IMG/VR virus record: IMGVR_UViG_3300015203_000010
Location: 1-54,037 of that record
DNA from: a virus
Taxonomy: Duplodnaviria > Caudoviricetes
Reading direction: 5' to 3' (one strand)
Length of the DNA: 54,037 nt
A program made the translations under genes and the position numbers. The notes beneath the pieces were generated by a model. It was not told where the DNA came from. It saw only the letters and a list, made by a program, of their open reading frames with translations, and did not search any database. Positions within the stretch are counted from its first letter, which is position 1, and each line of letters begins with the position of its first letter. Shown one piece after another: positions 12,198 through 54,037 of the stretch.

Positions 12198-12228
12198 TCG
12201 GGCGAAAGCCTAACAGGGATTTGCCCAC

Positions 12229-12936
12229 ATGAAACGTATACTTACTGTAATCGCGGCTTTGATTATCGGTACTACAGCAGTTAATGCCGCTGCACTTAGT
12301 AAATACCAGCCGGGTTTCCGGCTGGTTGACGGTTCGCAACTCAATTTGATGGTTGCTGCTGTCAATAACCTTACTGGTAATGGTACGGCTGGCCCGGTTA
12401 CTGCGACTAGCCTTAGTTATACCACTACTTTAACTGGTATTTCGGCAAACGCGGCTTGCTTGTCGGTTGGTCCCGCTGGTAATACGAATCCTTCGCTTAG
12501 GGTTGTTTGCTCTACTGCGTCGGCTGCTACTGGCTTGCAGGTCACAAGCGCGGCTGCCGCTGGCGGCGTAGCTCTTGCTACCATTTCGTCCGGCACGAAC
12601 GAAAACCTGACGATTGATGCCAAAGGTTCCGGCACTGTCACAATCAACGGCACTGGCACTGGCAACATTGTCATGGGTCGCGCTGTTACGGGCGTCTCTA
12701 CTTCACTCACTGGTGGTTTTACCGCCTATTCTGGCACGGCCACGCCTGCCGCTGCGTCGGCTGTAGCGGCTCTCACGATGGGTTCGGCTGGTATCACCCT
12801 CACTTGGGGCACCGGCACGCCTAGCATCGCCGCTCCACAGGGTTCTATTTATATTCAAACCGATGGTAGCTCTAGCTCGACTCGACTATTCGTTCGCGGA
12901 TCGTCTACCTGGATTGCTGTCACTACCGCTTCTTAA
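12229..12936 (+). CDS. signal-peptide, T/G/A/S-rich fibre-like protein
   Basis: ...TTAVNA|AA; LTIDAKGSGTV and GTGTPSIAAPQGSIYIQTDG fibre motifs; 2 Cys. Confidence 0.75.
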   Translation: MKRILTVIAALIIGTTAVNAAALSKYQPGFRLVDGSQLNLMVAAVNNLTGNGTAGPVTATSLSYTTTLTGISANAACLSVGPAGNTNPSLRVVCSTASAATGLQVTSAAAAGGVALATISSGTNENLTIDAKGSGTVTINGTGTGNIVMGRAVTGVSTSLTGGFTAYSGTATPAAASAVAALTMGSAGITLTWGTGTPSIAAPQGSIYIQTDGSSSSTRLFVRGSSTWIAVTTAS

Positions 12937-12961
12937 GTTTCTACGTAGCCTCCCCCAAACT

Positions 12962-12993
12962 TCCCGGCTGGTGAAAGCTGGCCGGGATTTTTT
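12962..12993 (+). terminator. rho-independent terminator
   Basis: TCCCGGCTGG/CTGGCCGGGA followed by TTTTT. Confidence 0.65.
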
Positions 12994-13005
12994 CTAGGAC
13001 AAGTC

Positions 13006-13335
13006 ATGGTTAAGTACACCAAAGCAACTGTGGCGGGAAAGGTTGTTTTTACCTGGAAATTAAAAGCAAACGAGTGTGGGGAATACGCTTTCGACACTCA
13101 GGATAGAATGAGTGTACAGTTATCAGGCTATTTCAACGGTGCCAAATGTGTTTTTGAAGGCACTAACGACAAAGATTTAGAGCCTTCTAAGCTTTATGTT
13201 GCTTTTGAAGGCGATTTTGATTTTACAAAACCTTCCATTAAATCCATTCCAGACGTTTCACTGCTTGTGCGCCCTAGAATTATAGGCGGCGACAAGAGTA
13301 CAGAAATCACAGTAACCCTTTTGATGGTGCCATAA
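13006..13335 (+). CDS. small all-beta putative virion protein
   Basis: SVQLSG.F.GA..VFEG.ND motif of small phage jelly-roll-like proteins. Confidence 0.55.
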   Translation: MVKYTKATVAGKVVFTWKLKANECGEYAFDTQDRMSVQLSGYFNGAKCVFEGTNDKDLEPSKLYVAFEGDFDFTKPSIKSIPDVSLLVRPRIIGGDKSTEITVTLLMVP

Positions 13336-13868
13336 TGAGCGCAGACGATGACGTTTTGCAGGGTTTGCGATTTATAAAACAATATTTAGGACCGCTAATC
13401 GCGGCGGTTCCTGAGTTTGAAAAGGTTACATCGCTTCAGAATCATATTGCTTCGTATGAAGCGCAGAATGAAGATTTGAAGAAAGTTAAAGCAGACTTAG
13501 AAAGAGCCGTTGAAAACCTGCAAGCCGAAGTCGAAAAGACTAAGGGTGAATTGGCTGTTGTCGAAGGCAAGTCGAATGATGTTGCTGCCTACATCAAAGG
13601 CAAGCAAAAAGAGGCCGACGACCATCTTTCCGGCATTGTCAATAACGCTTCATTGATTGCTGAAGAAAAAGCAACAAAAATTATTGAAGATGCGAAGATT
13701 GCGGCTAAAAAACTAACCAATACTACAAACGCAAATCTCGCTGCTACGTTGAAACAAATTGACGATGCAAACGCGAATTTGCAGTCAATCGTTGTTAAGA
13801 CTGCTGATGCTCAGGCTGCATTAGACAAAATCAATAAGATGCTCGATGCACTTCGACCAGGGAATTAA
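13335..13868 (+). CDS. coiled-coil protein
   Basis: long heptad-rich A/E/K/L helix; TAATG coupling. Confidence 0.7.
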   Translation: MSADDDVLQGLRFIKQYLGPLIAAVPEFEKVTSLQNHIASYEAQNEDLKKVKADLERAVENLQAEVEKTKGELAVVEGKSNDVAAYIKGKQKEADDHLSGIVNNASLIAEEKATKIIEDAKIAAKKLTNTTNANLAATLKQIDDANANLQSIVVKTADAQAALDKINKMLDALRPGN

Positions 13869-13871
13869 TCT

Positions 13872-14282
13872 ATGGCGAAAGGTATCGTTGAACGCATTCA
13901 TGGTGTTGGTGACCCGAATTTTCCAAGTCGGACTATTAAAGTTAATGCCGATGGTTCAATTAATGTAAATTCATTTGCACCTGTTGTCGCGACCGTTACA
14001 GATAAAAGTTTTGATCCCGATGGATCGAGTCATATTGTAATAGCGGCTAATGCGGCCAGATTAAATTATTTGATTTATAATCCTATTGATGTTTCTTTAA
14101 ATCCAAATGGCAACAGCGTTTTTATAAATCTTGGCGCATCTGCTACTTCTACTGGCAATAGTTTTGAAGTTACTCCTGGTGGTTATTTCCCCCCTCCTGG
14201 CATGCCTCTATATCTTGGTGATATTTATGCAATCGGTAACGCAACGATTACTTCGGTTGCAGCAAAAGAGTTTACAGCATGA
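13872..14282 (+). CDS. putative spike/fibre base protein
   Basis: IKVNADGSINV; IAANAAR..YLIYN...VFINLG...FEVTPGG beta-sandwich pattern. Confidence 0.55.
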   Translation: MAKGIVERIHGVGDPNFPSRTIKVNADGSINVNSFAPVVATVTDKSFDPDGSSHIVIAANAARLNYLIYNPIDVSLNPNGNSVFINLGASATSTGNSFEVTPGGYFPPPGMPLYLGDIYAIGNATITSVAAKEFTA

Positions 14283-15244
14283 AAAAATTAATTTTAATTT
14301 TTAGCTTGCTTTTATGTGGTTCGGCATTTGCTCAAAATAGCGGCGTACAAATTCAAGGCCCGTTTGCTGTTAATGATTGTACTCAAATTGTTAATCGGTT
14401 GCTTATTAAAAGTACAGGTGCGCCTTGTAGTAGTGGCACTCCTACTGGCGCTGCTGGTGGCAGCCTCAAAGGTACGTACCCCAACCCCGGTCTGGCCGAT
14501 GTAAACTCTATTGCGACTTCGCTCGCCATCGGCGGCGCGAGTGGGGTTCACGCCCTTAGCATATACGGTGGCCCCGGGGTCGCAGGCCCGCAAGCGGTAT
14601 TCTACCAAGATGGCGTTTCTATAGGCGGGATGCTGTCAAACAGTCAGTTGAATGGTGGAACGGGGAGTGACTTCGCCCTTGTCACTGGCGTAGGCCGGGG
14701 GCTGCACTTCTACACCAATGATGGTGCGGTCAACGTTGACCGCATGGCAATCACATCTGGCGGCAACGTCGGGATTGGGACGACGGGGCCTGGACAGAAA
14801 TTGGTCGTAGGTAACATAACAGGACAAAATACTCTGCGCATCAATGGTTTAAGTACAGCCGATATGGCTCCTGTACTTTCTTTGCTTCGGAGTGGCGCAC
14901 GGGAAGCAGTTATTGCTCAGACCCTTGGTGCAGGATTCGTTATCGCGAATACAGGCGGCCTTGCCAACTATAATGATGCAACAATTGATGCGGCGGCTAA
15001 CCTTGTTATCAATAACTTAGGCTACGTCGGCATCGGGACGACGGCGCCGAGCAGTACATTACAAGTCGCTGGTAATATTACCATCCCCGGCGCTGCTGCG
15101 CCGATTTTGACCACCGTCACCACCGTTACATCGGGTGCAGCCGCCGCAGTCGGTACGCTTACGAACGCTCCTGCTGCTGGTAATCCTACAAAGTGGATAC
15201 CGTTCAACGATGCTGGCGTAACGCGCTATATACCAGCTTGGTAA
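14279..15244 (+). CDS. signal-peptide fibre-like protein
   Basis: ...GSAFA|QN; GAAGGSLKGTYPNP; two G.VGIGTT.P fibre repeats; NAPAAGNPTKWIPF C-terminus. Confidence 0.8.
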   Translation: MKKLILIFSLLLCGSAFAQNSGVQIQGPFAVNDCTQIVNRLLIKSTGAPCSSGTPTGAAGGSLKGTYPNPGLADVNSIATSLAIGGASGVHALSIYGGPGVAGPQAVFYQDGVSIGGMLSNSQLNGGTGSDFALVTGVGRGLHFYTNDGAVNVDRMAITSGGNVGIGTTGPGQKLVVGNITGQNTLRINGLSTADMAPVLSLLRSGAREAVIAQTLGAGFVIANTGGLANYNDATIDAAANLVINNLGYVGIGTTAPSSTLQVAGNITIPGAAAPILTTVTTVTSGAAAAVGTLTNAPAAGNPTKWIPFNDAGVTRYIPAW

Positions 15245-15262
15245 GGGGTACGATTATAAGGA

Positions 15263-16819
15263 ATGCTTTTAATGAAATTCTTTCGTGAACTTTGGTTTGG
15301 TATTCCTCTTAGCCTAATTATTTGGGCTGTAATGTTTGTTGGCTATGCTAACGCAGCTTGCTCCGCTGGAAACTATTATACCACTACCGGAACGAATTGT
15401 ATTTTTGTTTCTCCTACAAACCCGTTGCCAACTACTTCCACATTCACACCTTCGGGAACGCAAGACGTTAATTTGACTAAAATTCTCGGTGCCGCGCCTT
15501 CGCTGACTAACCCTCTGTGGGTTTTTCCGGCGACTGGTGCGACGTTCCCAATTAGCGGGACTGTGAGTGCAACACAATCAGGCACTTGGACTGTGCAGCC
15601 GGGTAATACTGCCAATACAACGGCTTGGCTTGTGACTGGCACAGGTGGCACGTTTCCGGTCACAGGTACGTTTTGGCAAGCTACGCAGCCTGTTAGTGGT
15701 ACGTTTTGGCAGGCGACTCAGCCTGTAAGCGGCACCTTCTGGCAAGCTACGCAGCCAATTAGTGCTGCATCTTTACCGCTTCCCGCACTTGCTGCGACTT
15801 CTACAAAACAATCTGACGGTACTCAAAAAACGCAGATTGTTGATGGCTCCGGTAATGTCATTGGTGCTACTTCAAACGCATTAAACGTGAATATTTCATC
15901 CGGCTTTGGAACGACCATTGCAGTTACACAAAGCACAAGCCCTTGGGTTGTTTCAAATGGCGGCACGTTTGCTGTTCAAGCAACACTTAGCGCAGAAACA
16001 ACAAAGGTTATAGGTACAGTCAATCAAGGAACTAGCCCTTGGGTTGTTTCCGGCACTGTTACCGCAAACGCAGGTACTAATTTAAATACTTCGCTCTTGG
16101 CTTTGGAAAGCGGCGGCAATCTCGCTACGCTTGCTGGTGGAGTGACTGCTTCGGTTTATCAGCACAACACAAAGCAGATTAATGGTGTCGTTCCATTAAT
16201 GGGCAATGGTGTTACCGGCACAGGTTCGCAGCGCGTAACCATTGCGTCTGACAATACGGCGTTTTCGGTTAACGCTACGTTGTCGGCTGAAACGACAAAG
16301 GTAATTGGTACGGTTAACCAGGGTACAAGTCCTTGGGTTGTAGCTGGTGGAGGTACAGCGGGAAGCGCCGCCAGTGGCGTTGTTACTGTCCAAGGTATCG
16401 CGTCAATGACAGCCTTGGCAACCACGCTTCCTACAACTCCCGCCATCGCAAGTGGTTCGGGTGTTGTGCCTGCACCAAGTTCCGCCGCTGCTGCTGGCAT
16501 GGCAAACGTGGTTTCAACGGCTGCTGAATCAAATCATGTTCTTAAGGCGTCTGCTGGAAACCTGTACTCGTTAACGGCAACTATTGGCGCGACAAGCGGA
16601 TATTTGATGCTCTTTAATGCAACATCATTACCGGGAAACGGTGCTGTGACACCAGTAGGATGCTATCGAGTTTTGAGCGATGGTACGGCTGGCGGGATTA
16701 GCCTTCGGTGGGATTATCCGCTGGTATTTTCAACCGGCATCACGGCTGGATTTAGCACTACAGGTTGCTTCACGCTCACAGCGTCGGCTACGGGTAATTT
16801 CTTTGGGCAGATACAATAA
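15263..16819 (+). CDS. signal-peptide repetitive fibre-like protein
   Basis: hydrophobic leader ending YANA|AC; GTFWQATQPVS x3; SPWVV x3; C-terminal beta domain; 4 Cys. Confidence 0.8.
   Translation: MLLMKFFRELWFGIPLSLIIWAVMFVGYANAACSAGNYYTTTGTNCIFVSPTNPLPTTSTFTPSGTQDVNLTKILGAAPSLTNPLWVFPATGATFPISGTVSATQSGTWTVQPGNTANTTAWLVTGTGGTFPVTGTFWQATQPVSGTFWQATQPVSGTFWQATQPISAASLPLPALAATSTKQSDGTQKTQIVDGSGNVIGATSNALNVNISSGFGTTIAVTQSTSPWVVSNGGTFAVQATLSAETTKVIGTVNQGTSPWVVSGTVTANAGTNLNTSLLALESGGNLATLAGGVTASVYQHNTKQINGVVPLMGNGVTGTGSQRVTIASDNTAFSVNATLSAETTKVIGTVNQGTSPWVVAGGGTAGSAASGVVTVQGIASMTALATTLPTTPAIASGSGVVPAPSSAAAAGMANVVSTAAESNHVLKASAGNLYSLTATIGATSGYLMLFNATSLPGNGAVTPVGCYRVLSDGTAGGISLRWDYPLVFSTGITAGFSTTGCFTLTASATGNFFGQIQ
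15656..15763 (+). repeat. 33-bp in-frame tandem repeat (3 copies, degenerate third positions)
   Basis: encodes (PV[TS]GTFWQATQ)x3. Confidence 0.85.
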
Positions 16820-17400
16820 TGCGTAAAATAATTTATGGACTACTGTTAGCTTTTGGAATTGTTGCGCTGGCGAATGCTCAGTACGTGAGCCAAGTCGTCA
16901 CTGCGGCCTGTACGGCCTTCGGCACCACGTCCGGTACTTGTATCCAAGGCGCTGGTGCGCTCGGCACACCATCGTCCGGCACGGCGACAAATTTAACCGG
17001 ATTGCCGTTGACTACGGGTGTGACTGGGACGCTTCCGGTTGCTAATGGCGGGACAAACGATACGGGGACAGGATGGACTTCTTATACAGCTACAGCTACT
17101 TGCGGCACTGGAACTGCTACCGGAACAGGCTGGTATAAAGCTATCGGTAAAACTGTTTTTGTTGTTATAAATATTAATGACTCCGGTACTTGCTTGGTGT
17201 CTTTGACTGTAGCTTTACCAGTAGCGATTAACGCTACAATTGGTGCTGTAATTAGCGGTACAAACATAGCGAGCGGTATTGCTCAGTATGGATATGGTGG
17301 AGCTACATTTTCTGTACTTACAGTTTTATCAGCTACGGGTGCTTTTCCTTTTGCTGCTGGCCAAAATGTTATAATCAGTGGCGTTTATTGGTCGTCTTAA
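16819..17400 (+). CDS. signal-peptide fibre-like protein
   Basis: ...ALANA|QY; LGTPSSGTATNLTGLPLTTGVTGTLPVANGGT fibre motif; 4 Cys. Confidence 0.78.
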   Translation: MRKIIYGLLLAFGIVALANAQYVSQVVTAACTAFGTTSGTCIQGAGALGTPSSGTATNLTGLPLTTGVTGTLPVANGGTNDTGTGWTSYTATATCGTGTATGTGWYKAIGKTVFVVININDSGTCLVSLTVALPVAINATIGAVISGTNIASGIAQYGYGGATFSVLTVLSATGAFPFAAGQNVIISGVYWSS

Positions 17401-17422: not shown

Positions 17423-18121
17423 ATGGAAGTAGGTTTTCCCAAATCTGGAATTTACGCAATACTGAATACGGTAAATGATAAACTGTATGTTGGAAGTGCT
17501 GTAAATTTTAAACGTCGCTGGTCTAAACATATTCGTTATTTAAATAATAAAATTCATCCGAATAAGTTTCTCGAAAATTCTTGGCATAAACACGGACAGC
17601 AAAATTTTATCTTTGTTATCTTGGAAATTTGTCTTGTGCGAGAAAATTTAATCAAGCGTGAGCAGCACTGGATCAATCTTACTAAGTGCTACGAAAGGGA
17701 ATTAGGTTACAACATTTGTAGAGTGGCCGAAACTAGACTCGGTACTATACATACCGACGAAGCTAAAAAGAAAATGTCCATTTCTCGAAAAGGCCGCGTT
17801 GTCTCTGTTGAGACGCGCGCCAAAATTGCAGCGGCTCATAAAGGTAAAATTATATCTGAGGAGACTAGACTAAAATTGAGCATTGCTAATAAGGGCTGCA
17901 TTGTCTCGCAAGAGACTCGTGTTAATATGGCAAAAGGACAAACTGGCCGCAAACACTCAGAAGAAAGTAAATTAAAAAGGTCGGTGATTTTAAAAGGAAA
18001 ACCATTTCCTAATCCTAAAAAAGACCCACGACACTCAGAAGCTACAAAACTAAAACAATCCATCGCTAGGAAAAAATATTTAGAAAAACTAAACGGTGGT
18101 TGGTCAACCACATGGAAATAA
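17423..18121 (+). CDS. GIY-YIG homing endonuclease with NUMOD3 repeats
   Basis: SGIYAI...LYVGS...RW..H; HSEE repeats. Confidence 0.93.
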   Translation: MEVGFPKSGIYAILNTVNDKLYVGSAVNFKRRWSKHIRYLNNKIHPNKFLENSWHKHGQQNFIFVILEICLVRENLIKREQHWINLTKCYERELGYNICRVAETRLGTIHTDEAKKKMSISRKGRVVSVETRAKIAAAHKGKIISEETRLKLSIANKGCIVSQETRVNMAKGQTGRKHSEESKLKRSVILKGKPFPNPKKDPRHSEATKLKQSIARKKYLEKLNGGWSTTWK

Positions 18122-24605: not shown

Positions 24606-25094
24606 ATGAATTTGTCTCGACGCTTTTTCTTAGGTGGTGCAATTTCTTTAGTGGCTGTGCAGACGTTCATTCCAAATGTTTCAGCTATGATGAATTTACC
24701 TACAATTTACGGTGACGGTGTTCATGATGATACTGCTGGTTTAGGCGCTATTTTTAGAAATGAGCCGGTAACTTTTAATAAAGAGCAAATTGGTGTCGAT
24801 AGTCACGAAGGGCTTACCTTTCATCATGGTAGATTTAAAATTACCAACACTGTTAATATTCCAGCGAATAGTAAAATTGAAGTTATACGCGCTATATTTG
24901 TGGGTATAGAGTTAGACCCTAATTTTCCTTTCTTTAGTTGCGAAGATTTTAGCGGACATTCTTTTTCTGGAAATGGAATTTTTGAAATGAAAAAACTACC
25001 TAGAAAAGTTTTGATTGAATTTAAACATTTGAAACAAGATCGTGAATGGGTTGATGAACGTAAAGAAAAAGACTTAGAATGGATGCCTCGCTGA
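24606..25094 (+). CDS. Tat-signal protein with beta-helix cap motif
   Basis: SRRFFL twin-arginine motif plus h-region; GDGVHDDTA. Confidence 0.7.
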   Translation: MNLSRRFFLGGAISLVAVQTFIPNVSAMMNLPTIYGDGVHDDTAGLGAIFRNEPVTFNKEQIGVDSHEGLTFHHGRFKITNTVNIPANSKIEVIRAIFVGIELDPNFPFFSCEDFSGHSFSGNGIFEMKKLPRKVLIEFKHLKQDREWVDERKEKDLEWMPR

Positions 25095-27684: not shown

Positions 27685-27861
27685 ATGGCTAAAGACTCCA
27701 ACATCGCGAATGAGCGCGGTCACACTTTTTACCCAAAATTCGTGTACCCCAACGGCGAAAAGAAACCCGGTGTAATCGTTCAAGACGCGGACGAAGAAGC
27801 CAAGGCTATGGCTACTGCCAAGAAGCCGGTAGCGACCCCCGCTTGGAACGATAAAGCCTAA
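27685..27861 (+). CDS. small post-capsid protein (58 aa, not in ORF track)
   Basis: AGGA RBS; MAKDSNIANERGHTFYPKFVYPNGEKKPGVIVQDADEEAK...; TAATG coupling. Confidence 0.7.
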   Translation: MAKDSNIANERGHTFYPKFVYPNGEKKPGVIVQDADEEAKAMATAKKPVATPAWNDKA

Positions 27862-28829
27862 TGACAACGGCCCGCGACATTATCAATCTCGCCATGCGTG
27901 AGGTTGGCGTGCTCGGTGTGGGCCAGTCATTGCTCGCTCAAGACGTTAACGATGGCTTTACGCTTCTACAGCGCATGTTGGCACAGTGGCAAAAGCGTCG
28001 TTGGCTTGTCCCTGCACTCATTGACATTAAAACCAACGGTAACGGACTGAAAAGTAATAAAATTGGTCCCGGTCAATATTATAATTCTCCTAGACCAAAC
28101 GCAATTAAAGCCGGGTATATGATCCAGCTAAACACTGGATCAAACCCGGTTAGCTTGCCACTAGGTCAAATATTCAGTTACGAAGATTACGCGCTACTCG
28201 CATTGAAAAATCTTTCGAGTTTGCCTGAAGGTTTTTTCTATGACGGCGCTTTTCCTTACGGCAATGTTTTTATTTGGCCGGTGCCAAGCTCGATTTACGA
28301 AATTCATTTACTTGTGCAATGCGCGATTGGTTTTGATACCGCCGTTTCAGCCGGTACAATTTTAACGGTTGGTGTGGGCTACACCGATGGTGTCTATCCG
28401 GTAGTTCCCTTGACAGGTGGCACAGGTACGGCGGCTACAGCCGATATTACTGTTGCCGGTGGTGTGGTGACAGTCGTTACGCCAAATGATTCAGGCAACG
28501 GATACGTTATTAACGATACGTTGTCTGCCGATGCTTCGACTATCGGCGGCACAGGTGCGGGCTTTACTTATCAAGTGACCGGATTAGTCGGCAGTCTTGA
28601 TAGCGAATTTGATATGCCGCCTGAATATGAGGAAGCAATTCATTATAATTTAGCGATGCGCTTAGGCACTATGTATCAAATGCCGCTTGAGCGTTCACAA
28701 ATTACTTTGGCGAAGATTGCGCTTAACACGATTCGTGTCAGCAATACCCAAATCCCGTCGCTTTCGATGCCAAGAGGATTGCGACAAGGCCGTGCCTTCA
28801 ACCTATATAATGCGGATGGTAGTAGCTAG
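27861..28829 (+). CDS. head-tail adaptor (P22 gp4-like) with inserted Gly-rich beta domain
   Basis: MTTARDII..AM..VGVLG.G and PPEYEEAIHYNLA motifs; insertion at about 28345-28580. Confidence 0.8.
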   Translation: MTTARDIINLAMREVGVLGVGQSLLAQDVNDGFTLLQRMLAQWQKRRWLVPALIDIKTNGNGLKSNKIGPGQYYNSPRPNAIKAGYMIQLNTGSNPVSLPLGQIFSYEDYALLALKNLSSLPEGFFYDGAFPYGNVFIWPVPSSIYEIHLLVQCAIGFDTAVSAGTILTVGVGYTDGVYPVVPLTGGTGTAATADITVAGGVVTVVTPNDSGNGYVINDTLSADASTIGGTGAGFTYQVTGLVGSLDSEFDMPPEYEEAIHYNLAMRLGTMYQMPLERSQITLAKIALNTIRVSNTQIPSLSMPRGLRQGRAFNLYNADGSS

Positions 28830-29559: not shown

Positions 29560-31509
29560 ATGCGTTACCCCTTACTAGGTGCAGCCTATGCAGGCCGTAG
29601 CGTAATTGCCAGCGGTCAAGAAGCTATCAACCTTATCGCTGAGAGTAACGCGAAAGACCCGCAAGCCCCTACGCCAGTAACTTATTATCCTACCCCTGGT
29701 ACGGTTTTATACGCAGACCCTAACAACCCTCGCAATACGCGGTGCACTTATCGCACAAGCAAGGGCACAGCTTACGTTGTTGTCGGCGCTACGGTTTACT
29801 TTTTAGATAGCACACAACATTTAAGCATTGTTGGTTTCATTGCGGATAGACCTTCGCAAGTTTATATGGCCGACAATGGGAGCGCCCTTGTCATAGTTGA
29901 CGGCGCTAACGGCTACGCCGTCGATATGGCGTCGAATGATTTTGGGCAAATTGTTGATCCGGCTTTTTACGGTGCCGATTTCGTCGTCTATCTCGACACT
30001 TTCTTTATTTTTAATCGTCCTGCCACAAATCAATTTTATATTTCCGGTTCTATCGTCAACTTTGGAATGCTTACTAACAGCGCCATTGACATAGGAACAA
30101 TTGTCGGTGGTGGCACGGGTGTAAAAACTGGCGCAATAAGTGCAGCCGGTTCTTTATATGTAAATGCTGTTTATTTGGCGGTTCCCCTAACTGGTGGTAC
30201 AGGCACAGGAGCTAAAGCCGACATTACAGTTTCCGGTGGTGCCGTCACTGTAGTTACAAACATAGTCCCAGGCACAGGCTATGGAGTGGGTAATGTTCTT
30301 AGTGCCTCTAACGCAAATCTAGGCGGCGCGGGAAGCGGTTTTACTTTTACGATTGCGACTTTAGATTTATATACCAACGGTCTTTATCAGAATGTTCCGC
30401 TCACAGGTGGTTCGGGTTCTGGCGCGATTGCCTCTAGCTTTACGGTTAGTGGCGGTGTTGTCACGGCTGTAGCCATTGGCGATGGTGGCAAAAACTATTT
30501 GATTGGTGACGTTTTATCAGCGGCAAAAGCTAACATTGGCGGTACAGGTAGCGGATTCACATGGACCGCTACGGTAATGGCGACTGCCTTTGATGCGTTG
30601 GATATTGCGGCCAAGAGCGGTTCGGCAGACCCAATTGTAGGCATGACTACAACCCATCAAGAGCTTTGGCTTATTGGCGCTCTGACAACCGAAGTTTGGA
30701 TTGGTACTGGCGCGGCTGATTTCTTTTTCCAGGAACAGCAAGGAGCTTATATCGACCACGGTTGCACCGCCCAATATTCAATTGCCAATATAGATATTCT
30801 CCAATTCTGGATTTCGCAAGATAAGCAAGGTAACGGCATTATTTTGCAAGGTGCCAATTATCAGGTTAAAGAAATTTCAACGCCTCGCGTCTTAGCTTTA
30901 ATTAAAAATTATGTAACGCTTACTGATGCCATTGGTTTTTGTTTTCAAGTTTCAGACCATGCTTTTTATTGTCTAACTTTTCCAAGAGCCAATAAGACTT
31001 GGCTCTATGATTTGACAACCGAATTATGGAGTGAGTGGAATTGGAGTGACAGCGAAGGAAATCTTAATAGATCGCGCGCTAATTGCGCCATGTTTGCTTA
31101 CGGTAAAAATATTATTGGTGACTGGGAAAACGGAACGCTACTGACATTAGAGCCTGACGTATTTACCGATTTGGGCTATCCGATTGTACGCATTCGCACG
31201 TTTCCCCACATTATGAAAAACGGGGACCGTGTTTCGTATAAACAGTTTACCGCTGATGTTTCAGTAGGAAATTATAACGATCAAAACGCGGCAGAGCCTA
31301 TGATTTATCTGTCATGGTCGGATGATCGCGGGGTAACGTACGGCAATCCGGTTGCACAGTCGCTAGGCTCGCTTGGCGAGTATCTAACACAGCCGTCTTG
31401 GAATCGGCTTGGGCAGGCGCGTGATAGGGTGTTTAAATTGCAGCACTCCGCGCCGATGAATGTTGCAATAAACGGCGCTTTCATTGATACTGTTCCGGCA
31501 AAGAGCTAA
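29560..31509 (+). CDS. tail hub/nozzle, DNA stabilisation protein (P22 gp10-like)
   Basis: YPTPG, MADNG, YLDTFFIFN, LSWSDDRG.T, WNRLGQARDRVF motifs. Confidence 0.88.
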   Translation: MRYPLLGAAYAGRSVIASGQEAINLIAESNAKDPQAPTPVTYYPTPGTVLYADPNNPRNTRCTYRTSKGTAYVVVGATVYFLDSTQHLSIVGFIADRPSQVYMADNGSALVIVDGANGYAVDMASNDFGQIVDPAFYGADFVVYLDTFFIFNRPATNQFYISGSIVNFGMLTNSAIDIGTIVGGGTGVKTGAISAAGSLYVNAVYLAVPLTGGTGTGAKADITVSGGAVTVVTNIVPGTGYGVGNVLSASNANLGGAGSGFTFTIATLDLYTNGLYQNVPLTGGSGSGAIASSFTVSGGVVTAVAIGDGGKNYLIGDVLSAAKANIGGTGSGFTWTATVMATAFDALDIAAKSGSADPIVGMTTTHQELWLIGALTTEVWIGTGAADFFFQEQQGAYIDHGCTAQYSIANIDILQFWISQDKQGNGIILQGANYQVKEISTPRVLALIKNYVTLTDAIGFCFQVSDHAFYCLTFPRANKTWLYDLTTELWSEWNWSDSEGNLNRSRANCAMFAYGKNIIGDWENGTLLTLEPDVFTDLGYPIVRIRTFPHIMKNGDRVSYKQFTADVSVGNYNDQNAAEPMIYLSWSDDRGVTYGNPVAQSLGSLGEYLTQPSWNRLGQARDRVFKLQHSAPMNVAINGAFIDTVPAKS

Positions 31510-34713: not shown

Positions 34714-37056
34714 ATGGACGGCCTTTCGCCACAAGATAGGGATATGCTCGTTAGGACCGTTATCGGTGAGGCCGATAGTGAGCCTGATGTAGGTAAGGCT
34801 GCCGTTGCAAATGTTGTTTTGAATCGTCTAAACGCAGGCGGCTACGGTAAAACCATTCCTGACGTTTTGTTAGCGCCTAAACAATTCGAGCCGTGGTCTA
34901 ATCCCGATAAGATGATGCGTTATTCGGCGGATAGCCCTTCGTATAAAAAAGCCGCAAGTATCGTTGATAATGTTTTAGCTGGTAGTGTTGATGATCCTAC
35001 AGGCGGTGCTACTCATTTCGCTAATGTCGATACGGTCAAAGCACGCGGCAATAATTCCGCAATGAAGTGGATTAACGGAATGTCTAATGTGAGTCAGATC
35101 GGCTCGCATACTTTTGGCAACGCCGATGCAGGTAGAACTAAGATGGCTAAAAACGATTTGGACGGCGTTGACATTAAAGGTTTGCTTGAAGATTACGGCA
35201 GTAAATCAGACTCGTCTAAAGAGCCTTACTACACGCCAGCGCAAAATGGGCAACCGGCTAAACTTGTAATTGGCGCGCCTGGCAAAGACAATCCGTTAGC
35301 CGATGTTGATATAAAAGGATTGTTAGAAGATTATGGGCAAGCTCCTAAATCTGCCACTCCCGCTGTAGCTGAACAAAAGCCTTTTGATATTAATGATGCT
35401 GTATCTCAGCAACGCGGCTATGTAGGACGCGGCATTAAAGACGTTGCTGATACAGTTGGCGGCGCTATTGACCAAGGCGCGGCCTACGTCGCCAATAAAG
35501 TTTTGCCTGAAAGCATTTCGGTTCCATTCGCGCAAGGCGTTGCTGAAAGACAAGCATCACACTTGGCCGCGCGAAACGAATACGATGCTCAAAACCCGCC
35601 AGCCGAAGGGTTGATGCCTAATGCCTCACAGCTAGGGCGTGGCGTAGGCCAAATGATCGCGACGGCTCCCTTGATGCCAGCTAAGGCGTTTACGGCTATT
35701 GGCGCTGGTATGAAGTCGCTGCCAACTGTCAACGCTGTAGGTGAGCAAGTAGCGGCTCCTTTACTCAATCGACTCGGCGCGGCAACAGTTCAAGGTGGCC
35801 TTGGTGGTGGAATTTATGGGGCTGCTACATCGTCTCAGAATGACAAATCTTTAGCCGAAAATGTTGGTGAAAACGCGCTTGGTGGCGCGATTGCCGGTCC
35901 TGTTATTGCCGGTGCGGCTTCCGCTGCACGCGGCTTGGGCGGCAAGATTGTGGGTAACATTAATTCTAATCGTGCGTCGTTAGCAAAACGCGCTGAAGAA
36001 TTGGGAATTGATTTAAAAGCAAGTCAAGTTTCTACAAATCCAACATTTAAAAAATACGATCAAATTAGCGGTATGCTTCCGTTTTCTGGCGCGCAAGGAG
36101 TCACGGAAAAACAAATCGGTCAGTTTAGTAGAGCCGCGTCTAAATTAGCTGGCGAGGACACGGAAAATATTACACCGCAAGTTATTCAAAATGCTAAAAA
36201 GCGTATTGGAAAAGATTACGATACTGTCGCAGCCAATACGCAAATAAAATTAGCGCCTGATTTGCAAACTAAATTAAGCAAAGCTTATGATGATGCCGAG
36301 AGGATTTTACCGCCAGATCAATTTGCAACTTTCAAAAAACAATTACAAAACATTGCTGGCAAATTTCAGAACGGAGAAATGCCGGGTGACGTTTGGCAGT
36401 CTATGCGCCGTACTACTGAGCCTATGAGCCGTCTTATAAATTCGCGCAACAATGTAGAATTGGGGCAATCTGTTAAAGCTATTCAACAAGCTATGGATGA
36501 AGCTTTCAATGCGTCTGCCCCAAAAAGTATGCAAGATTTATTGAAGCAAGCCAATCGGCAATACAAAGTTGTAAAGACACTAGAACCGTTAGTAAATGGC
36601 GATGCCGAAGGGCATGTTAGCCCGCTCAAATTAATGCAGAAAGTAAATTCGTCCCCAGGCGGCAAATTGCGTTCCGGCGAGCTTGGCGAATTGGCCGATA
36701 TTGGCCGCGCTTTCTTTCCCACGTCTGCCGATAGCGGCACGCCTTTGGGAGAAAAAATACTTGGTGGAATTACAGGTTTGATGCACAGTCCGCTATCAGG
36801 TGCAGCCGCCGTTGGTGCGGCAGTAACTCACGGCTCGCCAATTTTAGATATGGGCGCTAGTGCTGTAGGATTGGGTGTGAACCGTCTTATTCGTTCCGGT
36901 ATGAATAGCAAAGCCATTACCCGCTCTATGATTAACGCAGCGAACGGGAAAACTTACGGTGCTGTCAATAAACTTGGCGATGCTGTTACGCCTTATTCGT
37001 TTGCTCTTGCTCCACCTAGAGACGCATTGAGACTTACCGACGACCGACGCAAATAG
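34714..37056 (+). CDS. DNA ejection protein with N-terminal SleB-like cell wall hydrolase (Hydrolase_2)
   Basis: RTVIGEA..E...GKAAVANVVLNR, QFEPW, DPTGGATHF, IGSHTF; Ala/Gly-rich gp16-like body. Confidence 0.85.
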   Translation: MDGLSPQDRDMLVRTVIGEADSEPDVGKAAVANVVLNRLNAGGYGKTIPDVLLAPKQFEPWSNPDKMMRYSADSPSYKKAASIVDNVLAGSVDDPTGGATHFANVDTVKARGNNSAMKWINGMSNVSQIGSHTFGNADAGRTKMAKNDLDGVDIKGLLEDYGSKSDSSKEPYYTPAQNGQPAKLVIGAPGKDNPLADVDIKGLLEDYGQAPKSATPAVAEQKPFDINDAVSQQRGYVGRGIKDVADTVGGAIDQGAAYVANKVLPESISVPFAQGVAERQASHLAARNEYDAQNPPAEGLMPNASQLGRGVGQMIATAPLMPAKAFTAIGAGMKSLPTVNAVGEQVAAPLLNRLGAATVQGGLGGGIYGAATSSQNDKSLAENVGENALGGAIAGPVIAGAASAARGLGGKIVGNINSNRASLAKRAEELGIDLKASQVSTNPTFKKYDQISGMLPFSGAQGVTEKQIGQFSRAASKLAGEDTENITPQVIQNAKKRIGKDYDTVAANTQIKLAPDLQTKLSKAYDDAERILPPDQFATFKKQLQNIAGKFQNGEMPGDVWQSMRRTTEPMSRLINSRNNVELGQSVKAIQQAMDEAFNASAPKSMQDLLKQANRQYKVVKTLEPLVNGDAEGHVSPLKLMQKVNSSPGGKLRSGELGELADIGRAFFPTSADSGTPLGEKILGGITGLMHSPLSGAAAVGAAVTHGSPILDMGASAVGLGVNRLIRSGMNSKAITRSMINAANGKTYGAVNKLGDAVTPYSFALAPPRDALRLTDDRRK

Positions 37057-37177
37057 TATAAACTAAATTATATACAAAAGTCATCACTACCAACGCTATT
37101 AAAAGTTTCCAGTTAACTAATTCTCTAAAAGTGATTGCGGCTATTAGCCAGATTGACCAAAATATGACCAAATTCAT
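37034..37177 (-). CDS. small two-TM membrane protein (47 aa, not in ORF track)
   Basis: MNLVIFWSIWLIAAITFRELVNWKLLIALVVMTFVYNLVYTICVGRR, preceded by AATAAGGA RBS on - strand. Confidence 0.55.
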   Translation of the reverse strand: MNLVIFWSIWLIAAITFRELVNWKLLIALVVMTFVYNLVYTICVGRR

Positions 37178-40148
37178 TAACAAATTCCTTATTGTTTTTG
37201 CAATTCTAAGTTACGGCTTATTTACAACGGCTGCTTCCGCCGATACGGCGGGATTGCTCCCGGCTGGTAAAATTCAATTTCTGGATTCAAATGGCAAGCC
37301 GCTTGTAGGTGGCAAGGTCTATTTTAAAATTCCTGCTACGGATGCTTTAAAAACGACTTGGCAAGACGCAGCCGAGACAATTCCAAATGCGAACCCGGTT
37401 ATTTTAGATTCAGCCGGTCGCGCGATCATATGGGGTTTCGGAAGTTATCGCCAGCAAGTTTATGACCGAAACTCAAATTTAATTTGGGACGTTGTTACAT
37501 CGTCTGCCGGTTCGGGCGGTGGAGGCGGCGGCACGGTAGTTGGAGACGCTAGTTATGTAGGTACGATATTGCCTTGGTCGTCTTTAGTTTTACCTACCAA
37601 TTATCTTTTTGCATTTGGTCAAGAAATAAGCCGTCTTACATATCCTGAATATTTTGCTGCTATAACTTCGATTCAAGCGGTTTCTTGTACTTCAAGTAGC
37701 CCTACTTTAAGCGGTCTTACTGATACAACTCAAATTCCAATCGGTGCGCCGGTCGAAGCATCTTGTATTGCTGCTGGCGCAACAGTTTTATCTAAAACAT
37801 CTTCTACAATTACCGTTAGTGTCAATGCCACTGTTTCTACAAGCGCATTGGCTACAATTTTTCCTTGGGGTAATGGCGACGGTTCTACTACATTCAATGT
37901 GCAAGATTTGCGTGGCCGTACTTTAGCTGGCCGCGACAACATGGGCGGCACAGCGGCTTCACGCTTGACAACGACCTATTTCGCTAACGCCAATGCTATT
38001 GGTGCGGCTGGTGGATCGCAAAGCCATCTTTTGACGGCTCTCGAAACGCCAGTATTAACTTCAACGTCTGTTGTGACCGATCCGGGGCATAACCACACTT
38101 ATGCCAATTCGCAAAATGCCGCTGGTGTTAGTGCTGGTGCTGGTTCGGCGGTATATCAGACACCGCAAATAACTTCCAATACATCAACTTCAACTACCGG
38201 CGTTACCGTTGCTACTACTACTAACGTAGGCGGCGGCGCTTCTCATTCCATCGTTCAACCTACAATTACAATAAACTATATTGTAAAGGTTAAATCAGAC
38301 AACGTATTAGCAACCGGCGCGATTGCTCTTTCTAATTTAGCATTACAAGCAAATAATACAGTTGTAGGCAATGTGTCCGGTGTTTCAAGCTCGCCAATTG
38401 CTTTAACAACTACTCAGTTAACAACACTTTGTAATTCATTTACTTCAACGCTATCCGGCTGTGTCCCTAGTAGCGGTGGCGGTACATCTAATTTTCTTAG
38501 AGCCGATGGAACATGGGCTGCGGCTGGTGGTGGCACGGGGTCTGTGACTGCCGTTGGTACTGGCAGCGGTTTAAACGGTGGCCCGATCACAACCACAGGA
38601 ACCATTACTTGTAATAATTTTGGCGCGGCGACAATTGGCTGTGTTCCGGCTTCCGGTGGCGGCTCTACCAATTTCTTAAGAGCCGATGGCACATGGGCTG
38701 CACCTACATTTTCTTCACAGTGGACAACAAGTGGTTCAAATATTTATTACAATACCGGCAAGGTCGGTATTGGGAATACTGCGCCAACAGCAACGCTTAC
38801 TGTTGGCCCTGTTTTTGGAAATACGGCAAACTCTGCAACATTTACTACAAATGCCGGTGCACTCGGCACGACTGCGGGAAATACGCTTCGCTTGGGAAGC
38901 CTGGGTTTTACTTCTACAAATGAAGAACATCTTGGCGTTATGGCTTATCGTACTACGAATGGTGCTACCTATGTGAGTACAGCAATAGGACTTGGCATTG
39001 ATGTAGATAGTACGGCGTTTGGCCCAACAAGCGGTCTTTGGTTATCATTTGGCGGCAATGTTGGCATTGGAACAGCAACCCCGGCTAGTTTACTCGATAT
39101 AGTTGGAGGCAACGTACAGACACTAATTTCTGCTGTTGGTGCTAACTCGGCAGCATTTACAGTTCCTGGTCAAGCTTCCAATATTCAAACCGACTCTGTT
39201 AACGGTCATACTCTGTACGGCATTTCATGCCCCGGCTGCACATACTACGCAGCCTTTTCGTCCACACTGAATGTTATAGCCGGGACCACAGTAACCTTGC
39301 CTGCTGGTATTGCGGCTTTTGTCAGCAATAAAGCAGAACGCTCAAATAGCGGAAACGGCACTAACGCGGTGGCACTGTTTGGGACTGTCTCTTGCGAAGT
39401 TGGGACCGGAACCTTTGGTTCCGGCTGTTGGGGAGTCAATACAGTAGTCACCGACAGCGCAACAGCTGCGCCGACAACATCAGGAATAAGATTATTAGAG
39501 AATGAATTTAGCTTCAATGTTTACAACGGAGGTACAATAGTAAGAGGCATTAACGTAGTTGGCCAATTTACAGTATCGACGCCTAATTCATACGCTTTCT
39601 TGTGCGATAGTAACGCCTCTTTTCCGTGGAGCTACTGCTTAAGAAGCCAAGACGGCGCGGTAACAACGGCGGCATCAATAGGCACGCAAACTACAACAGC
39701 CTATTCAAGCGGCCAATTCATTGAACTTGACTATCGCGACGGTTCAAACGTTGTAAAAAAGCCACAACTTTATATGCAGGCAAACGTGGGGAGTAGTGCC
39801 GCATTGACGTTAACTAAGGCTCACTTTGTAGTTGGAGAGGGTTTCATACAAGGAGTCCACCTAGGCGGAATCAATACAGGCGGCGTCTTACCTACTGTTA
39901 CAAGCTGTGGGGGCGGTTCTCCTACCATATCAGGGACAGACGTAGCGGGTATTGTAGCTGCTGGAACTGGTGCGATAACAAGTTGCACAGTGCATTTTGC
40001 TTTCCCCTATATCGCGCAGCCGTATTGCACAGTTAGCCCCGTGTCTGCTTCTCCCGTAACTCAAATTGGCATAACCACAACCGACCTTGTAATTGCATTC
40101 TCGTCGTTTACGTCTGCAATATTCTCTTACATTTGTATGGGTACATAA
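37164..40148 (+). CDS. tail fibre with signal peptide, virion-anchor domain and tail-collar domain
   Basis: MTKFINKFLIVFAIL...AASA|DT; QFLD.NGKPL.GGKVYF/NPVILDSAGRA anchor; collar motifs GQEISR.TYPE and GDGSTTFN..DLRGR; G.VGIG repeats; 16 Cys. Confidence 0.85.
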   Translation: MTKFINKFLIVFAILSYGLFTTAASADTAGLLPAGKIQFLDSNGKPLVGGKVYFKIPATDALKTTWQDAAETIPNANPVILDSAGRAIIWGFGSYRQQVYDRNSNLIWDVVTSSAGSGGGGGGTVVGDASYVGTILPWSSLVLPTNYLFAFGQEISRLTYPEYFAAITSIQAVSCTSSSPTLSGLTDTTQIPIGAPVEASCIAAGATVLSKTSSTITVSVNATVSTSALATIFPWGNGDGSTTFNVQDLRGRTLAGRDNMGGTAASRLTTTYFANANAIGAAGGSQSHLLTALETPVLTSTSVVTDPGHNHTYANSQNAAGVSAGAGSAVYQTPQITSNTSTSTTGVTVATTTNVGGGASHSIVQPTITINYIVKVKSDNVLATGAIALSNLALQANNTVVGNVSGVSSSPIALTTTQLTTLCNSFTSTLSGCVPSSGGGTSNFLRADGTWAAAGGGTGSVTAVGTGSGLNGGPITTTGTITCNNFGAATIGCVPASGGGSTNFLRADGTWAAPTFSSQWTTSGSNIYYNTGKVGIGNTAPTATLTVGPVFGNTANSATFTTNAGALGTTAGNTLRLGSLGFTSTNEEHLGVMAYRTTNGATYVSTAIGLGIDVDSTAFGPTSGLWLSFGGNVGIGTATPASLLDIVGGNVQTLISAVGANSAAFTVPGQASNIQTDSVNGHTLYGISCPGCTYYAAFSSTLNVIAGTTVTLPAGIAAFVSNKAERSNSGNGTNAVALFGTVSCEVGTGTFGSGCWGVNTVVTDSATAAPTTSGIRLLENEFSFNVYNGGTIVRGINVVGQFTVSTPNSYAFLCDSNASFPWSYCLRSQDGAVTTAASIGTQTTTAYSSGQFIELDYRDGSNVVKKPQLYMQANVGSSAALTLTKAHFVVGEGFIQGVHLGGINTGGVLPTVTSCGGGSPTISGTDVAGIVAAGTGAITSCTVHFAFPYIAQPYCTVSPVSASPVTQIGITTTDLVIAFSSFTSAIFSYICMGT

Positions 40149-40738
40149 TGAATCCAAATGTAATTGATATTTCGCATTGGAATACCGTGCGTGATTTTGC
40201 AGCGTTGAAAGCTGCCGGAATCTTAGGAGTTATTTTAAAATGCACGCAAGGGACTAACTACGTTGATCCTACTTACGTTGCTCGTCGAAAATTAATAACA
40301 GACGCAGGTTTGTTATTCGGAGCCTACACATTCAACACAGGTGAAAATGTTAAAGCGCAAGTAGAGCAATTCTTTTCACATGCAGAACCGGATGATAATA
40401 CGTTAATGGCGCTTGATTTTGAAGATAATCCACATAGTCAAATGTCATTAGATCAAGCTCGACTATTCTTGCAATTGGCCGATGCTCGCCTTGGTAGAAA
40501 ATTGGTTCTTTACAGTGGCAATCGAATTAAAGATATGCTAGGAAATCATGCGGACGCATTTTTTGGTTCGCACAAGCTTTGGCTCGCCCAATACGGACCC
40601 GTTGCTAAAACTCAGCCTAGTTGGCTAACTCCTTTCCTCTGGCAATATAGCGAAAACGGTCAATTACCTGGAACTGATGGCAAGATTGATTTAAATTATT
40701 ACGCTGGCACTAATTTAAAATCTGAATGGGTTTCTTAG
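40148..40738 (+). CDS. endolysin, GH25 muramidase
   Basis: IDISHW, KCTQG..YVD, ALDFE, LWLAQY, WQYS, IDLN. Confidence 0.92.
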   Translation: MNPNVIDISHWNTVRDFAALKAAGILGVILKCTQGTNYVDPTYVARRKLITDAGLLFGAYTFNTGENVKAQVEQFFSHAEPDDNTLMALDFEDNPHSQMSLDQARLFLQLADARLGRKLVLYSGNRIKDMLGNHADAFFGSHKLWLAQYGPVAKTQPSWLTPFLWQYSENGQLPGTDGKIDLNYYAGTNLKSEWVS

Positions 40739-42499: not shown

Positions 42500-43027
42500 A
42501 TGCGAGCACTTCACATGGCGGCGATTTTCGTTGCCGTTTCCCTGCCAATCGTAGCCTCTACCGCAGAAGCTAAAACAAGACACCACAGCTACCACCACGT
42601 CGCTACCAGGGCTTACAGCCCCGCTCAGCCATGTGTTTCAGACAATAGCGGGCGTCAATCATGCCAAGTGACTCAGGAAACGCACCAGCGGTCACGGCAA
42701 AGAGTTTCTGACAACGCCGAAATGATTCCGCACCCTGCGGGATGCCCTAGTACGGCTTTCTGTGCCTGTGGGGCGTCCGTCAGGGTGTTTGGTCACTCTG
42801 TACGCTCGCTATGGCCTGCAAGCGCGTGGTATCGCTTCCCGCGTACATCGCCAGCGCCGGAAATGGTGGCGGTTCGCTCGCATCACGTCTTTGTGCTAGA
42901 AAGCCAAGTGAGCGGCAATGAATGGCTAGTGATCGATTACAATTCAGGCGGTCATCAATCGCGTCGGCATGTGCGAAACATTGCAGGCTACGCGATAGTT
43001 AATCCACATGCTTCGGCTAGTTTGTGA
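42500..43027 (+). CDS. secreted CHAP/NlpC-like protein
   Basis: signal ...AEA|K; FCACG, A..W..FP, HHVF, D.NSG arrangement resembles a CHAP Cys/His fold. Confidence 0.55.
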   Translation: MRALHMAAIFVAVSLPIVASTAEAKTRHHSYHHVATRAYSPAQPCVSDNSGRQSCQVTQETHQRSRQRVSDNAEMIPHPAGCPSTAFCACGASVRVFGHSVRSLWPASAWYRFPRTSPAPEMVAVRSHHVFVLESQVSGNEWLVIDYNSGGHQSRRHVRNIAGYAIVNPHASASL

Positions 43028-53899: not shown

Positions 53900-54036
53900 T
53901 TTGGAGCCTTTTTAATCGCGGCCAAAACCATTTTTTCAAGCATTTTTTCTTGATCTTTTTTAGCAGCCGCCCGAGCAGCCGACCAAGCAGCCGACCGAGC
54001 AGCCGACCAAGCAACCGACCAAGCAGCCGACCAAGC
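53896..54036 (-). CDS. 3' end of Ala-rich (AWSA)n repeat protein, truncated by window
   Basis: frame reads AWSAAWSVAWSAARSAAWSAARAAAKKDQEKMLEKMVLAAIKKAPK-stop, ATGA-coupled to next gene. Confidence 0.7.
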   Translation of the reverse strand, partial: AWSAAWSVAWSAARSAAWSAARAAAKKDQEKMLEKMVLAAIKKAPK

Positions 54037-54037
54037 A
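53962..54037. repeat. 12-bp tandem repeat AGCAGCCGACC(A/G)
   Basis: about 6 copies running to window end. Confidence 0.9.

Follow-up and report, generated by a model that had tools for sequence, protein, structure and literature searches.

A Putative Secretory Precursor of a Tail Fibre in a Short-Tailed Phage: A Signal-Peptide-Like Leader ahead of a Predicted Particle-Binding Domain

Introduction

The virus record IMGVR_UViG_3300015203_000010, analysed here over its whole length of 54,037 bases (hereafter the window; 44.9% G+C), carries a tail fibre gene whose translation starts at ATG 37164 and whose first 26 residues are built like a signal for the general secretory (Sec) pathway and signal peptidase I. 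As the initial annotation of this DNA had described, this leader stands directly ahead of a podovirus-type anchor domain in the translated open reading frame (ORF). It is very probable that the leader is translated and functional. Judging from sequence comparisons, it also appears quite likely that the fibre is exported and disulfide-bonded. The complete explanation, in which the fibre would be made as a secretory precursor and would join the particle at lysis, is somewhat favoured.

The Leader and the Start of the Fibre Gene

The fibre ORF matches PHROG 8763 "tail protein" (E 5.9e-21) and its product, translated from ATG 37164, reads MTKFINKFLIVFAILSYGLFTTAASA/DTAGLLPAGKIQFLDSNGKPLVGGKVYF at its N-terminus, the slash marking the predicted cut here and below. 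Leaders were called by rules of our own, which look for K or R, a hydrophobic core and a small-x-small site. The n-region of the fibre leader (M1-K7) holds the positive charges expected of a signal peptide (K3 and K7), and it is followed by an uncharged, strongly hydrophobic core of 13 residues (F8-F20, FLIVFAILSYGLF), whose best 10-residue Kyte-Doolittle mean is 2.61. The c-region, TTAASA, carries small residues at -3 and -1 (A24-S25-A26, then D27), so that a cut is predicted after A26 (ASA/DTAG). Downstream of the leader, the chain continues as DTAG-LLPAGKIQFLDSNGKPLVGGKVYF..., with a glycine run, a collar domain and a long body rich in Gly, Thr and Ser. The lipobox of lipoproteins processed by signal peptidase II is absent, residues 1-174 being free of Cys, and so is the RR motif of the twin-arginine translocation (Tat) pathway, as there is no Arg in residues 1-30. 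A reading of the leader as a signal-anchor-release (SAR) sequence was dropped, since the core is strongly hydrophobic and the cleavage motif lies after it.

The two closest homologues begin MKSFINKF... and MKSSVIKNYL..., which fits ATG 37164 as the start. The public gene call (P0002) used a longer reading from GTG 37131. Since ATG 37164 has no Shine-Dalgarno motif of its own and the nearest relative DNA found in a metagenome scan is about 60% identical at best, the case for the start in the window rests on homology. Furthermore, the leader ATG of relatives is preceded by AGGA-type motifs. A scan of genome contigs with the fibre N-terminus alone confirmed none of 85 matched stretches, and a promoter and terminator scan around the fibre gene gave nothing above chance on the + strand near the start, spacer included. 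The antisense ORF that had been thought to overlap the start was not recovered: none of at least 50 amino acids (aa) does so, and the nearest ones on the minus strand lie at 36631-36786 and 37730-37951.

In many relatives (L005, L008, L010, L013, L015, L017 and others), the frame is open upstream of the leader ATG and reads a conserved ...IVGIQIQLRNLK... about 70 bases 5' of the fibre ATG. Rather than being coding sequence, this stretch probably reflects a conserved DNA element (a late promoter or an RNA signal). Certain gene calls begin in this upstream open frame and thereby produce "leaders" of 53 residues.

Conservation of the Leader among Homologues

The anchor core could be placed in 119 homologues, 92 of which have at least 14 residues ahead of it and 27 only 3-13. 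Three of the 92 (P0029, P0058, P0068) are cut by the gene call at an inner Met, and P0120 and P0100 were scored leaderless, their extensions not being hydrophobic. The leader sequences diverge widely, and nearly all have K or R, an uncharged hydrophobic core and a small-x-small site. Of 135 family leaders, 131 have K or R in the n-region, and 133 of the 135 leader-bearing members have a -3/-1 site within the last 12 residues. The predicted cut lies 4-9 residues ahead of the anchor in 127 members, while the sequence of the core drifts; its commonest motifs among the 135 are AxA/Q (52) and AxG/Q (14), typically at a distance of four residues from the anchor.

Selection on the leader was examined through the ratio of nonsynonymous to synonymous substitution rates (dN/dS), which is 0.36 for leader codons versus 0.25 for the first 100 anchor codons (32 unique loci, 275 unsaturated pairs, which are not independent, the direction being clear). 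Close pairs show synonymous changes only in the leader, for example with proportions of synonymous and nonsynonymous differences (pS and pN) of 0.20 and 0.00. The leader codons are under purifying selection.

In a tree of 144 anchor domains, the clade of the window (86 rows, SH-aLRT 92) consists entirely of leader-bearing members. The leader label requires at least 11 changes on this tree, at least two of them on well-supported branches. The existence of homologues without leaders, which the initial annotation had named as damaging to its proposal, is thus true of distant clades and of the cultured phages that were checked, and not of the window's own clade. These leaderless homologues begin M-x-x-(L/I)LP, 3-5 residues ahead of the shared anchor motif, with a stop codon 1-6 codons upstream of the start in L028, L042, L046, L032, L049, L035, L037 and L044. 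The cut predicted in leader-bearing proteins would therefore give nearly the natural N-terminus of the leaderless ones, within a few residues. Around the anchor start (-6 to +2 codons), ATG, GTG and TTG are all missing from 26 of 30 unique loci, which indicates that a leaderless isoform is not conserved.

In at least 74 of the 135 leaders, the residue after the predicted cut is Gln (AxA/Q, AxG/Q, SxA/Q, VxA/Q). An N-terminal Gln can cyclise to pyroglutamate, and a Gln rule is known for the signal peptides of Bacteroidota. Against this, AGGA-type ribosome sites are common among the genes of the window, so that the Gln pattern does not assign the host.

The Predicted Anchor and the Collar Domain

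By its predicted fold, the fibre's N-terminal domain is a podovirus particle-binding anchor. AlphaFold2 (AF2) modelling of residues 1-159 from a 28-sequence alignment gives a helix (2-20), a stretch of low confidence (25-32) and a beta domain (36-114), with a predicted local distance difference test (pLDDT) of about 84-93 over residues 41-110. Foldseek matched the modelled anchor with probability 1.00 to the tail complex of the cyanopodophage Pan3 (9vyg_o, E 1.4e-5; 28% identity, root-mean-square deviation (rmsd) 1.9 Å) to Pam1 (7eeq_A) and to the head-binding domain of the P22 tailspike (several entries, among them 1lkt/2vnl), and also found Sf6, with E 2e-4 to 4e-3 for P22 and its relative. 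Sequence searches of the PDB with the fibre gave no match at E up to 1, and the P22 head-binding model of Pfam does not match the fibre. The anchor begins 4 residues past the predicted cut, i.e., at the N-terminus of the mature protein. When the six frames of the window were searched with the anchor profile A3, the fibre was the sole significant match (E 8.5e-39; next E 1.2).

Anchors in tandem, or lying far inside the protein, were seen in P0246, P0248, P0252, P0264, P0275, P0286 and P0313.

Cysteine Parity Tracks the Leader

The fibre has 16 cysteines, as the initial annotation had counted, and the five local pairs that it quoted are all present. Taken in sequence order, the pairs are 175/201, 423/433, 483/493, 689/692, 744/755, 814/825, 915/941 and 955/991; with this pairing, the gaps within pairs sum to 133 residues (permutation p 0.00055, 100,000 random placements). 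The number of gaps of 11 residues or less is unremarkable when taken alone (p 0.07). The pair in the collar insert (Cys175 and Cys201) is kept in leader-bearing homologues (Table 1), and T and G stand in their place in the collar protein of Bordetella phage PHB04, which has no leader.

The suggestion that the presence of a leader could co-vary with cysteine pairs proved fruitful, as it tracks even cysteine counts in the family, counted from the anchor onward (mature part). Even counts were found in 85 of the 92 leader-bearing homologues versus 12 of the 27 leaderless ones (Fisher 3e-7). Clustering the C-terminal parts of the leader-bearing proteins at 40% identity gave 70 groups, and the count is even in 64 of them, ranging from 2 to 20. 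In the same way, an independent sample of 50%-identity representatives of at least 400 aa gives even counts in 51/52 proteins with a leader and in 23/51 without; for the combined 211 members of at least 400 aa, the figures are 122/129 and 38/82. Cysteine density is nearly equal in the two classes (median 1.20 with a leader versus 1.04 without, per 100 aa, p 0.09), so that it is parity that tracks the leader. An even number of cysteines is preferred in exported proteins of Gram-negative bacteria and has been ascribed to disulfide bonding (PMC7678975, available part of the text). On the basis of these counts, the even-cysteine pattern that accompanies the leader is that of disulfide-bonded exported proteins.

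Spread in the Family and in Cultured Phages

A profile of the anchor alone, made from 26 sequences, of which 12 have a leader and 14 do not, was run against 1.84 billion sequences and retrieved 33,056 representatives at E ≤0.001, including 21,595 at ≤1e-10. Among the best 150 of the 33,056, 83 begin with the anchor, and in 57 it is preceded by 22-53 residues, with a hydrophobic core (Kyte-Doolittle 2.0 or more) in 55 of these 57. In the remaining 10, the anchor lies further inside (tandem anchors, over-long gene calls), and two of them again have a leader. New types of leaders, with an ordinary proteobacterial look, occur among these best 150.

When a phage collection was searched with a leader-bearing query, the matches of 36 records began no earlier than residue 22. 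All seven phages whose gene start was checked are leaderless: PAE2, Rhodoferax P26218, Vibrio 1.183.O, Shewanella X14, Xanthomonas PBR31 and Thalassomonas BA3, which are cultured, and the uncultured MW202557. This may explain why the feature went unnoticed. Leader-bearing anchors are found in bacterial contigs of Hyphomicrobiales, Bradyrhizobium, Rhodospirillaceae and Acidobacteriota. For example, the fibre of a prophage (L029) of the cultured Methylobacterium persicinum NBRC 103628 begins MNRILAALLALVCLCLPASA/ATLLP, and its gene follows those of the hub, the ejection proteins and a SleB-type protein, like in the window.

Bradyrhizobium phage ppBdUSDA122-1 (L121, 817-2265) encodes, between a "tail protein" and a "tail fiber protein", a "hypothetical protein" (WAX24264.1) beginning MKRNLSVLVIAAIAGSIAAGAMQTLLSAFA/VQ. 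This protein has a collar-type domain, six cysteines and a similar N-terminus, so that a cultured phage may here provide a case of a fibre-like protein with a leader.

Proposed Mechanism and Alternative Explanations

These data suggest the following scenario. The gene would encode a particle-anchored tail fibre as a secretory precursor, and the Sec machinery of the host would export the unfolded chain late in infection. The leader would be removed, and the fibre would fold, form about eight disulfides and trimerise in the oxidising periplasm. Meanwhile, heads would be built in the cytoplasm from proteins that have no leader (portal, adaptor and hub). The holin, the leaderless GH25 endolysin and the spanin-like lipoprotein would then break the envelope, so that fibres meet fibre-less particles and the anchor attaches to the hub, in the way that purified P22 tailspikes bind heads in vitro. 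P22 tailspikes attach to heads as the last assembly step, also in vitro, and it is because of this that joining is placed at lysis. In the P22 tailspike, the N-terminal domain serves in capsid assembly (PMC7949094, accessible portion). That the exported fibre is the fibre of the virion and joins it at lysis, which is argued by analogy, has an even chance or marginally better. As for the interpretation given in the initial annotation, the anchor is backed by its predicted fold and by being the only one in the window, and the leader is conserved and selected; joining only after lysis is still something that we infer.

Several points weigh against this scenario. The leader calls come from the rules given above and not from SignalP. 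The spacer (37057-37163) has no Shine-Dalgarno-like motif ahead of ATG 37164, as the initial annotation had remarked; the window is among the 4 of 30 loci that have a possible start at the anchor (TTG 37254); and no RNA run was found to carry 36700-38200, the one run listed for it being of DNA and perhaps its source. The tree of anchors is weakly resolved (61 of 133 inner branches open), and phylogenetically independent comparisons of leader and cysteine parity come down to two supported pairs. Cysteine counts are odd in 7 of the 129 leader-bearing proteins, cysteine density hardly differs between the classes, and a protein made in the cytoplasm could in principle oxidise after release. No precedent was found for an exported fibre joining a cytoplasmic particle in tailed phages, and WceF, which has the same kind of N-terminal domain, is exported by Tat and is not part of a virion. 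Lastly, the contig has no terminal overlap and its completeness is unproven.

Four other explanations were considered. The fibre could be exported without being part of the virion and bind or cleave glycans in the envelope of the infected cell (e.g., masking or destroying receptors for exclusion or clean release), the particle using another receptor-binding protein. WceF offers a model, as it is a non-viral protein in which a cleaved Tat signal is combined with a head domain like that of P22, a neck and a beta-helix (PMC7949094, part of the text). Leader-bearing anchors also occur in bacterial contigs, and five more leader-bearing fibre-like ORFs lie at 11622-17400 in the window. This explanation is nevertheless unlikely: the fibre is the sole anchor-domain protein in the window, it sits exactly where related phages have leaderless tailspikes, the structural module has no other fibre-like ORF, and the dN/dS of the anchor (0.25) corresponds to the constraint expected of a docking domain. 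There might also be two pools of fibres, most chains being exported for a second job and a leaderless or non-exported pool, due to TTG 37254 or to saturated Sec, supplying the particles in the cytoplasm. In the window, an in-frame TTG does stand exactly at the anchor start. This TTG has no spaced Shine-Dalgarno motif (GGGA abuts it without a spacer), such a start is missing from 26 of the 30 related unique loci, and the rule of even cysteine counts suggests that selection acts on the oxidised form, which makes two pools improbable.

The hydrophobic segment, which AF2 models as a helix (residues 2-20), might otherwise stay uncleaved and tether the fibre to the inner membrane until lysis, or help docking. 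This is hardly probable, as the -3/-1 site is kept in 133/135 members while the core drifts, a core of 13 residues has the length of a signal peptide and not of a membrane span, and three hydrophobic helices at the docking face of the trimer would be unlike the leaderless homologues, which dock without them. Finally, the true start could be TTG 37254 and the "leader" an untranslated spacer, in keeping with the absence of a Shine-Dalgarno motif before ATG 37164 and with the position of this TTG at the anchor. An untranslated spacer would not stay open, keep the n-h-c build and show a dN/dS of 0.36 across dozens of divergent loci. Furthermore, the closest homologues start at the same place (MKSFINKF...), and P0003 is 81% identical to the fibre of the window over residues 1-140. 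Such an artefact is highly improbable, and the downstream start that the initial annotation had considered can be set aside, the leader being conserved and under selection and no internal start being conserved.

If the secretory-precursor explanation is true, the last assembly step is tied to lysis, and Sec and Dsb of the host are host factors for infectivity. Such receptor-binding proteins, when expressed cell-free or in the cytoplasm for engineering or diagnostics, would then come out misfolded, and signal peptides on metagenomic phage fibre genes should not be "corrected" as start-site errors. The route would be frequent, given the 57 extended proteins among the best 150 of 33,056 representatives, and would have been missed as the cultured members checked are leaderless. 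That a large share of environmental short-tailed phages build capsid, portal and hub in the cytoplasm, export disulfide-bonded fibres through Sec to trimerise in the periplasm, and obtain infectious virions only once holin and endolysin merge the two compartments could equally well be true or false. The explanation is directly testable, since a homologue with a leader is encoded by a prophage of a Methylobacterium that is cultured and harmless.

Genome Setting

Judged by its gene content, the window is an uncultured short-tailed phage with a P22-type morphogenesis module (Table 1), in which the hub and the adaptor are presumed to be the docking partner of the fibre. The order hub, ejection proteins, fibre and endolysin is also found in the viral contig L015 (58.9 kb) and in prophage L029; related contigs have 57-59 kb. 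The ATG of the endolysin gene shares one base with the stop of the fibre gene (TAATG), and the endolysin is followed by a membrane protein and then by a spanin-like lipoprotein. Genes for a family A DNA polymerase and a helicase are carried by the opposite strand. A scan for prophage relatives with the portal returned one 3-kb contig labelled archaeon, which is uninformative on the host.

Table 1. Positions in the window of the features discussed in the text.
Feature	Position	Strand	Remarks
tRNA-Arg (TCT)	3771-3846
tRNA-Leu (TAA)	8792-8869
tRNA-Thr (TGT)	9083-9158
Fibre-like ORF, 191 aa	from 11622		4 mature Cys
Fibre-like ORF, 235 aa	from 12229		2 mature Cys
Fibre-like ORF, 321 aa	from 14279		2 mature Cys
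Fibre-like ORF, 518 aa	from 15263		4 mature Cys
Fibre-like ORF, 193 aa	from 16819		4 mature Cys
Large terminase	from 18100		module gene
Portal	from 19469		module gene, without leader
Scaffold	from 25290		module gene
Coat	from 26373		56% identical to the coat of Pseudomonas phage PAE2; without leader
gp4-like adaptor	27861-28829		PHROG 637, PF11650; without leader
Tail hub (head closure Hc3, P22 gp10-like)	29560-31509	+	PHROG 578, E 6.6e-93; without leader
Ejection protein	from 32281
Ejection protein	from 33024
Ejection protein with N-terminal SleB-type cell-wall hydrolase domain	34714-37056	+	PF07486, E 4.7e-20; PHROG 26400; upstream neighbour of the fibre gene
A+T-rich spacer 5' of the fibre gene	37057-37163	+	sequence
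Tail fibre gene	37164-40148	+	ATG 37164 to TAA 40146-40148, 994 aa
Leader, residues 1-26, MTKFINKFLIVFAILSYGLFTTAASA	37164-37241	+	sequence; AF2 helix 2-20
In-frame TTG, codon 31 (first anchor residue)	37254-37256	+	sole candidate leaderless start
Predicted particle-binding (anchor) domain, residues 31-115	37254-37508	+	AF2, Foldseek, profile
Phage tail collar domain, residues 133-167	37560-37664	+	PF07484, E 1e-7, 32.2 bits (cut-off 24)
Cys175...Cys201 pair, collar insert	37686-37766	+	both Cys kept in leader-bearing P0006 and P0011
Two copies of the C-x9-C ... GCVP ... FLRADGTWAA repeat (Cys423/433, Cys483/493)	38430-38708	+	sequence
GH25 endolysin	40148-40738	+	PF01183, E 6.7e-30; without leader

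Besides the main fibre, five Gly/Thr/Ser-rich fibre-like ORFs with Sec-type leaders lie upstream of the terminase. The one at 14279 matches PHROGs of tail fibres and has the motif G-x-VGIGT-x-x-P-x-x-x-L in common with the main fibre; a search for homologues of this ORF (14279-15244) gave short-motif matches only, 11 of 119 being signal-bearing by rule, and no useful family. None of the five has the anchor domain. The initial annotation took the main fibre as the only evident receptor-binding protein: it does carry the sole anchor domain in the window, and the claim is weakened by these five ORFs and by the unproven completeness of the contig.

Some other ORFs have no family match. The 162-aa ORF at 24606-25094, located between the genes on the portal side and the scaffold gene, begins with a twin-arginine-like leader (MNLSRRFFLGG...), followed by GDGVHDDTAGL, which we take to resemble the start of pectate-lyase-type tailspike bodies. 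Signal-peptide-like N-termini were also seen in small ORFs at 1594-2007 (3 Cys), 2985-3401 (2 Cys) and 42500-43027 (5 Cys). Two homing-endonuclease genes (each GIY-YIG plus NUMOD3) are located at 10320-11075 and 17423-18121, the second one directly before the large terminase gene. Both contig ends are made of short tandem repeats, of the TTAGATATA type (1-80) and of the GCAGCCGACCAA type (53958-54037).

Comparison with Known Systems

Assembly of tailed phages is, according to textbooks, wholly cytoplasmic, and to our knowledge two-compartment morphogenesis has so far been described for none of them. No tailed-phage fibre bearing a Sec leader is reported in the full-text literature searched, including the available parts of PMC10975493, PMC3556154 and PMC12309495, subscription journals and supplements lying outside this scope.

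The fibre shares its predicted N-terminal fold with the tailspikes gp9 of P22 (PDB 1LKT, 2VNL, 8TVR) and gp14 of Sf6, and its gene ends a P22-like module (coat, portal, gp4-like adaptor, gp10-like hub). In P22, gp9 lacks a leader, and both its synthesis and its attachment take place in the cytoplasm. Unlike gp9, the fibre of the window has a leader, is only 16-19% identical and has a body made of a collar and a fibre, not of a beta-helix. The best structural matches are the fibre N-termini of the cyanopodophages Pan3 (9VYG) and Pam1 (7EEQ), with 27-28% identity and an rmsd of 1.9-2.0 Å over about 80 residues. The tail spike of Pan3 also matches by sequence the N-terminus of the homologue from the Methylobacterium prophage; this match starts at residue 33 of the leader-bearing query and leaves the leader unmatched.

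Other systems share the export signal. SAR endolysins (phiKMV, JG068 gp47) are late phage proteins with N-terminal signal sequences, exported by Sec before lysis (PMC3765740, part of the text). They are enzymes and not virion parts, and their SAR domain is weakly hydrophobic, rich in Gly and Ala, and uncleaved. In filamentous phages, the receptor-binding protein g3p is exported by Sec, carries disulfide bonds and is added to the particle outside the cytoplasm. It differs in that inoviruses extrude the whole particle at the membrane, whereas the capsid of the window's phage is tailed, DNA-packaging and cytoplasmic, and there is no homology between the two.

In WceF, the stewartan glycanase of Pantoea stewartii, a P22-like head domain comes right after an export signal and is followed by a trimeric tailspike-type body (PMC7949094). 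This enzyme is not a virion component; its gene is chromosomal and belongs to an exopolysaccharide cluster, and its export goes through the Tat route, which takes folded proteins. By contrast, the leader of the window's fibre is of the Sec type and has no twin arginines, and the fibre gene belongs to a phage structural module. The closest known system is the podovirus particle-binding domain by fold and position, and WceF by architecture. As far as sequences indicate, the novelty would lie in an ordinary anchor-bearing fibre being placed on an export route.

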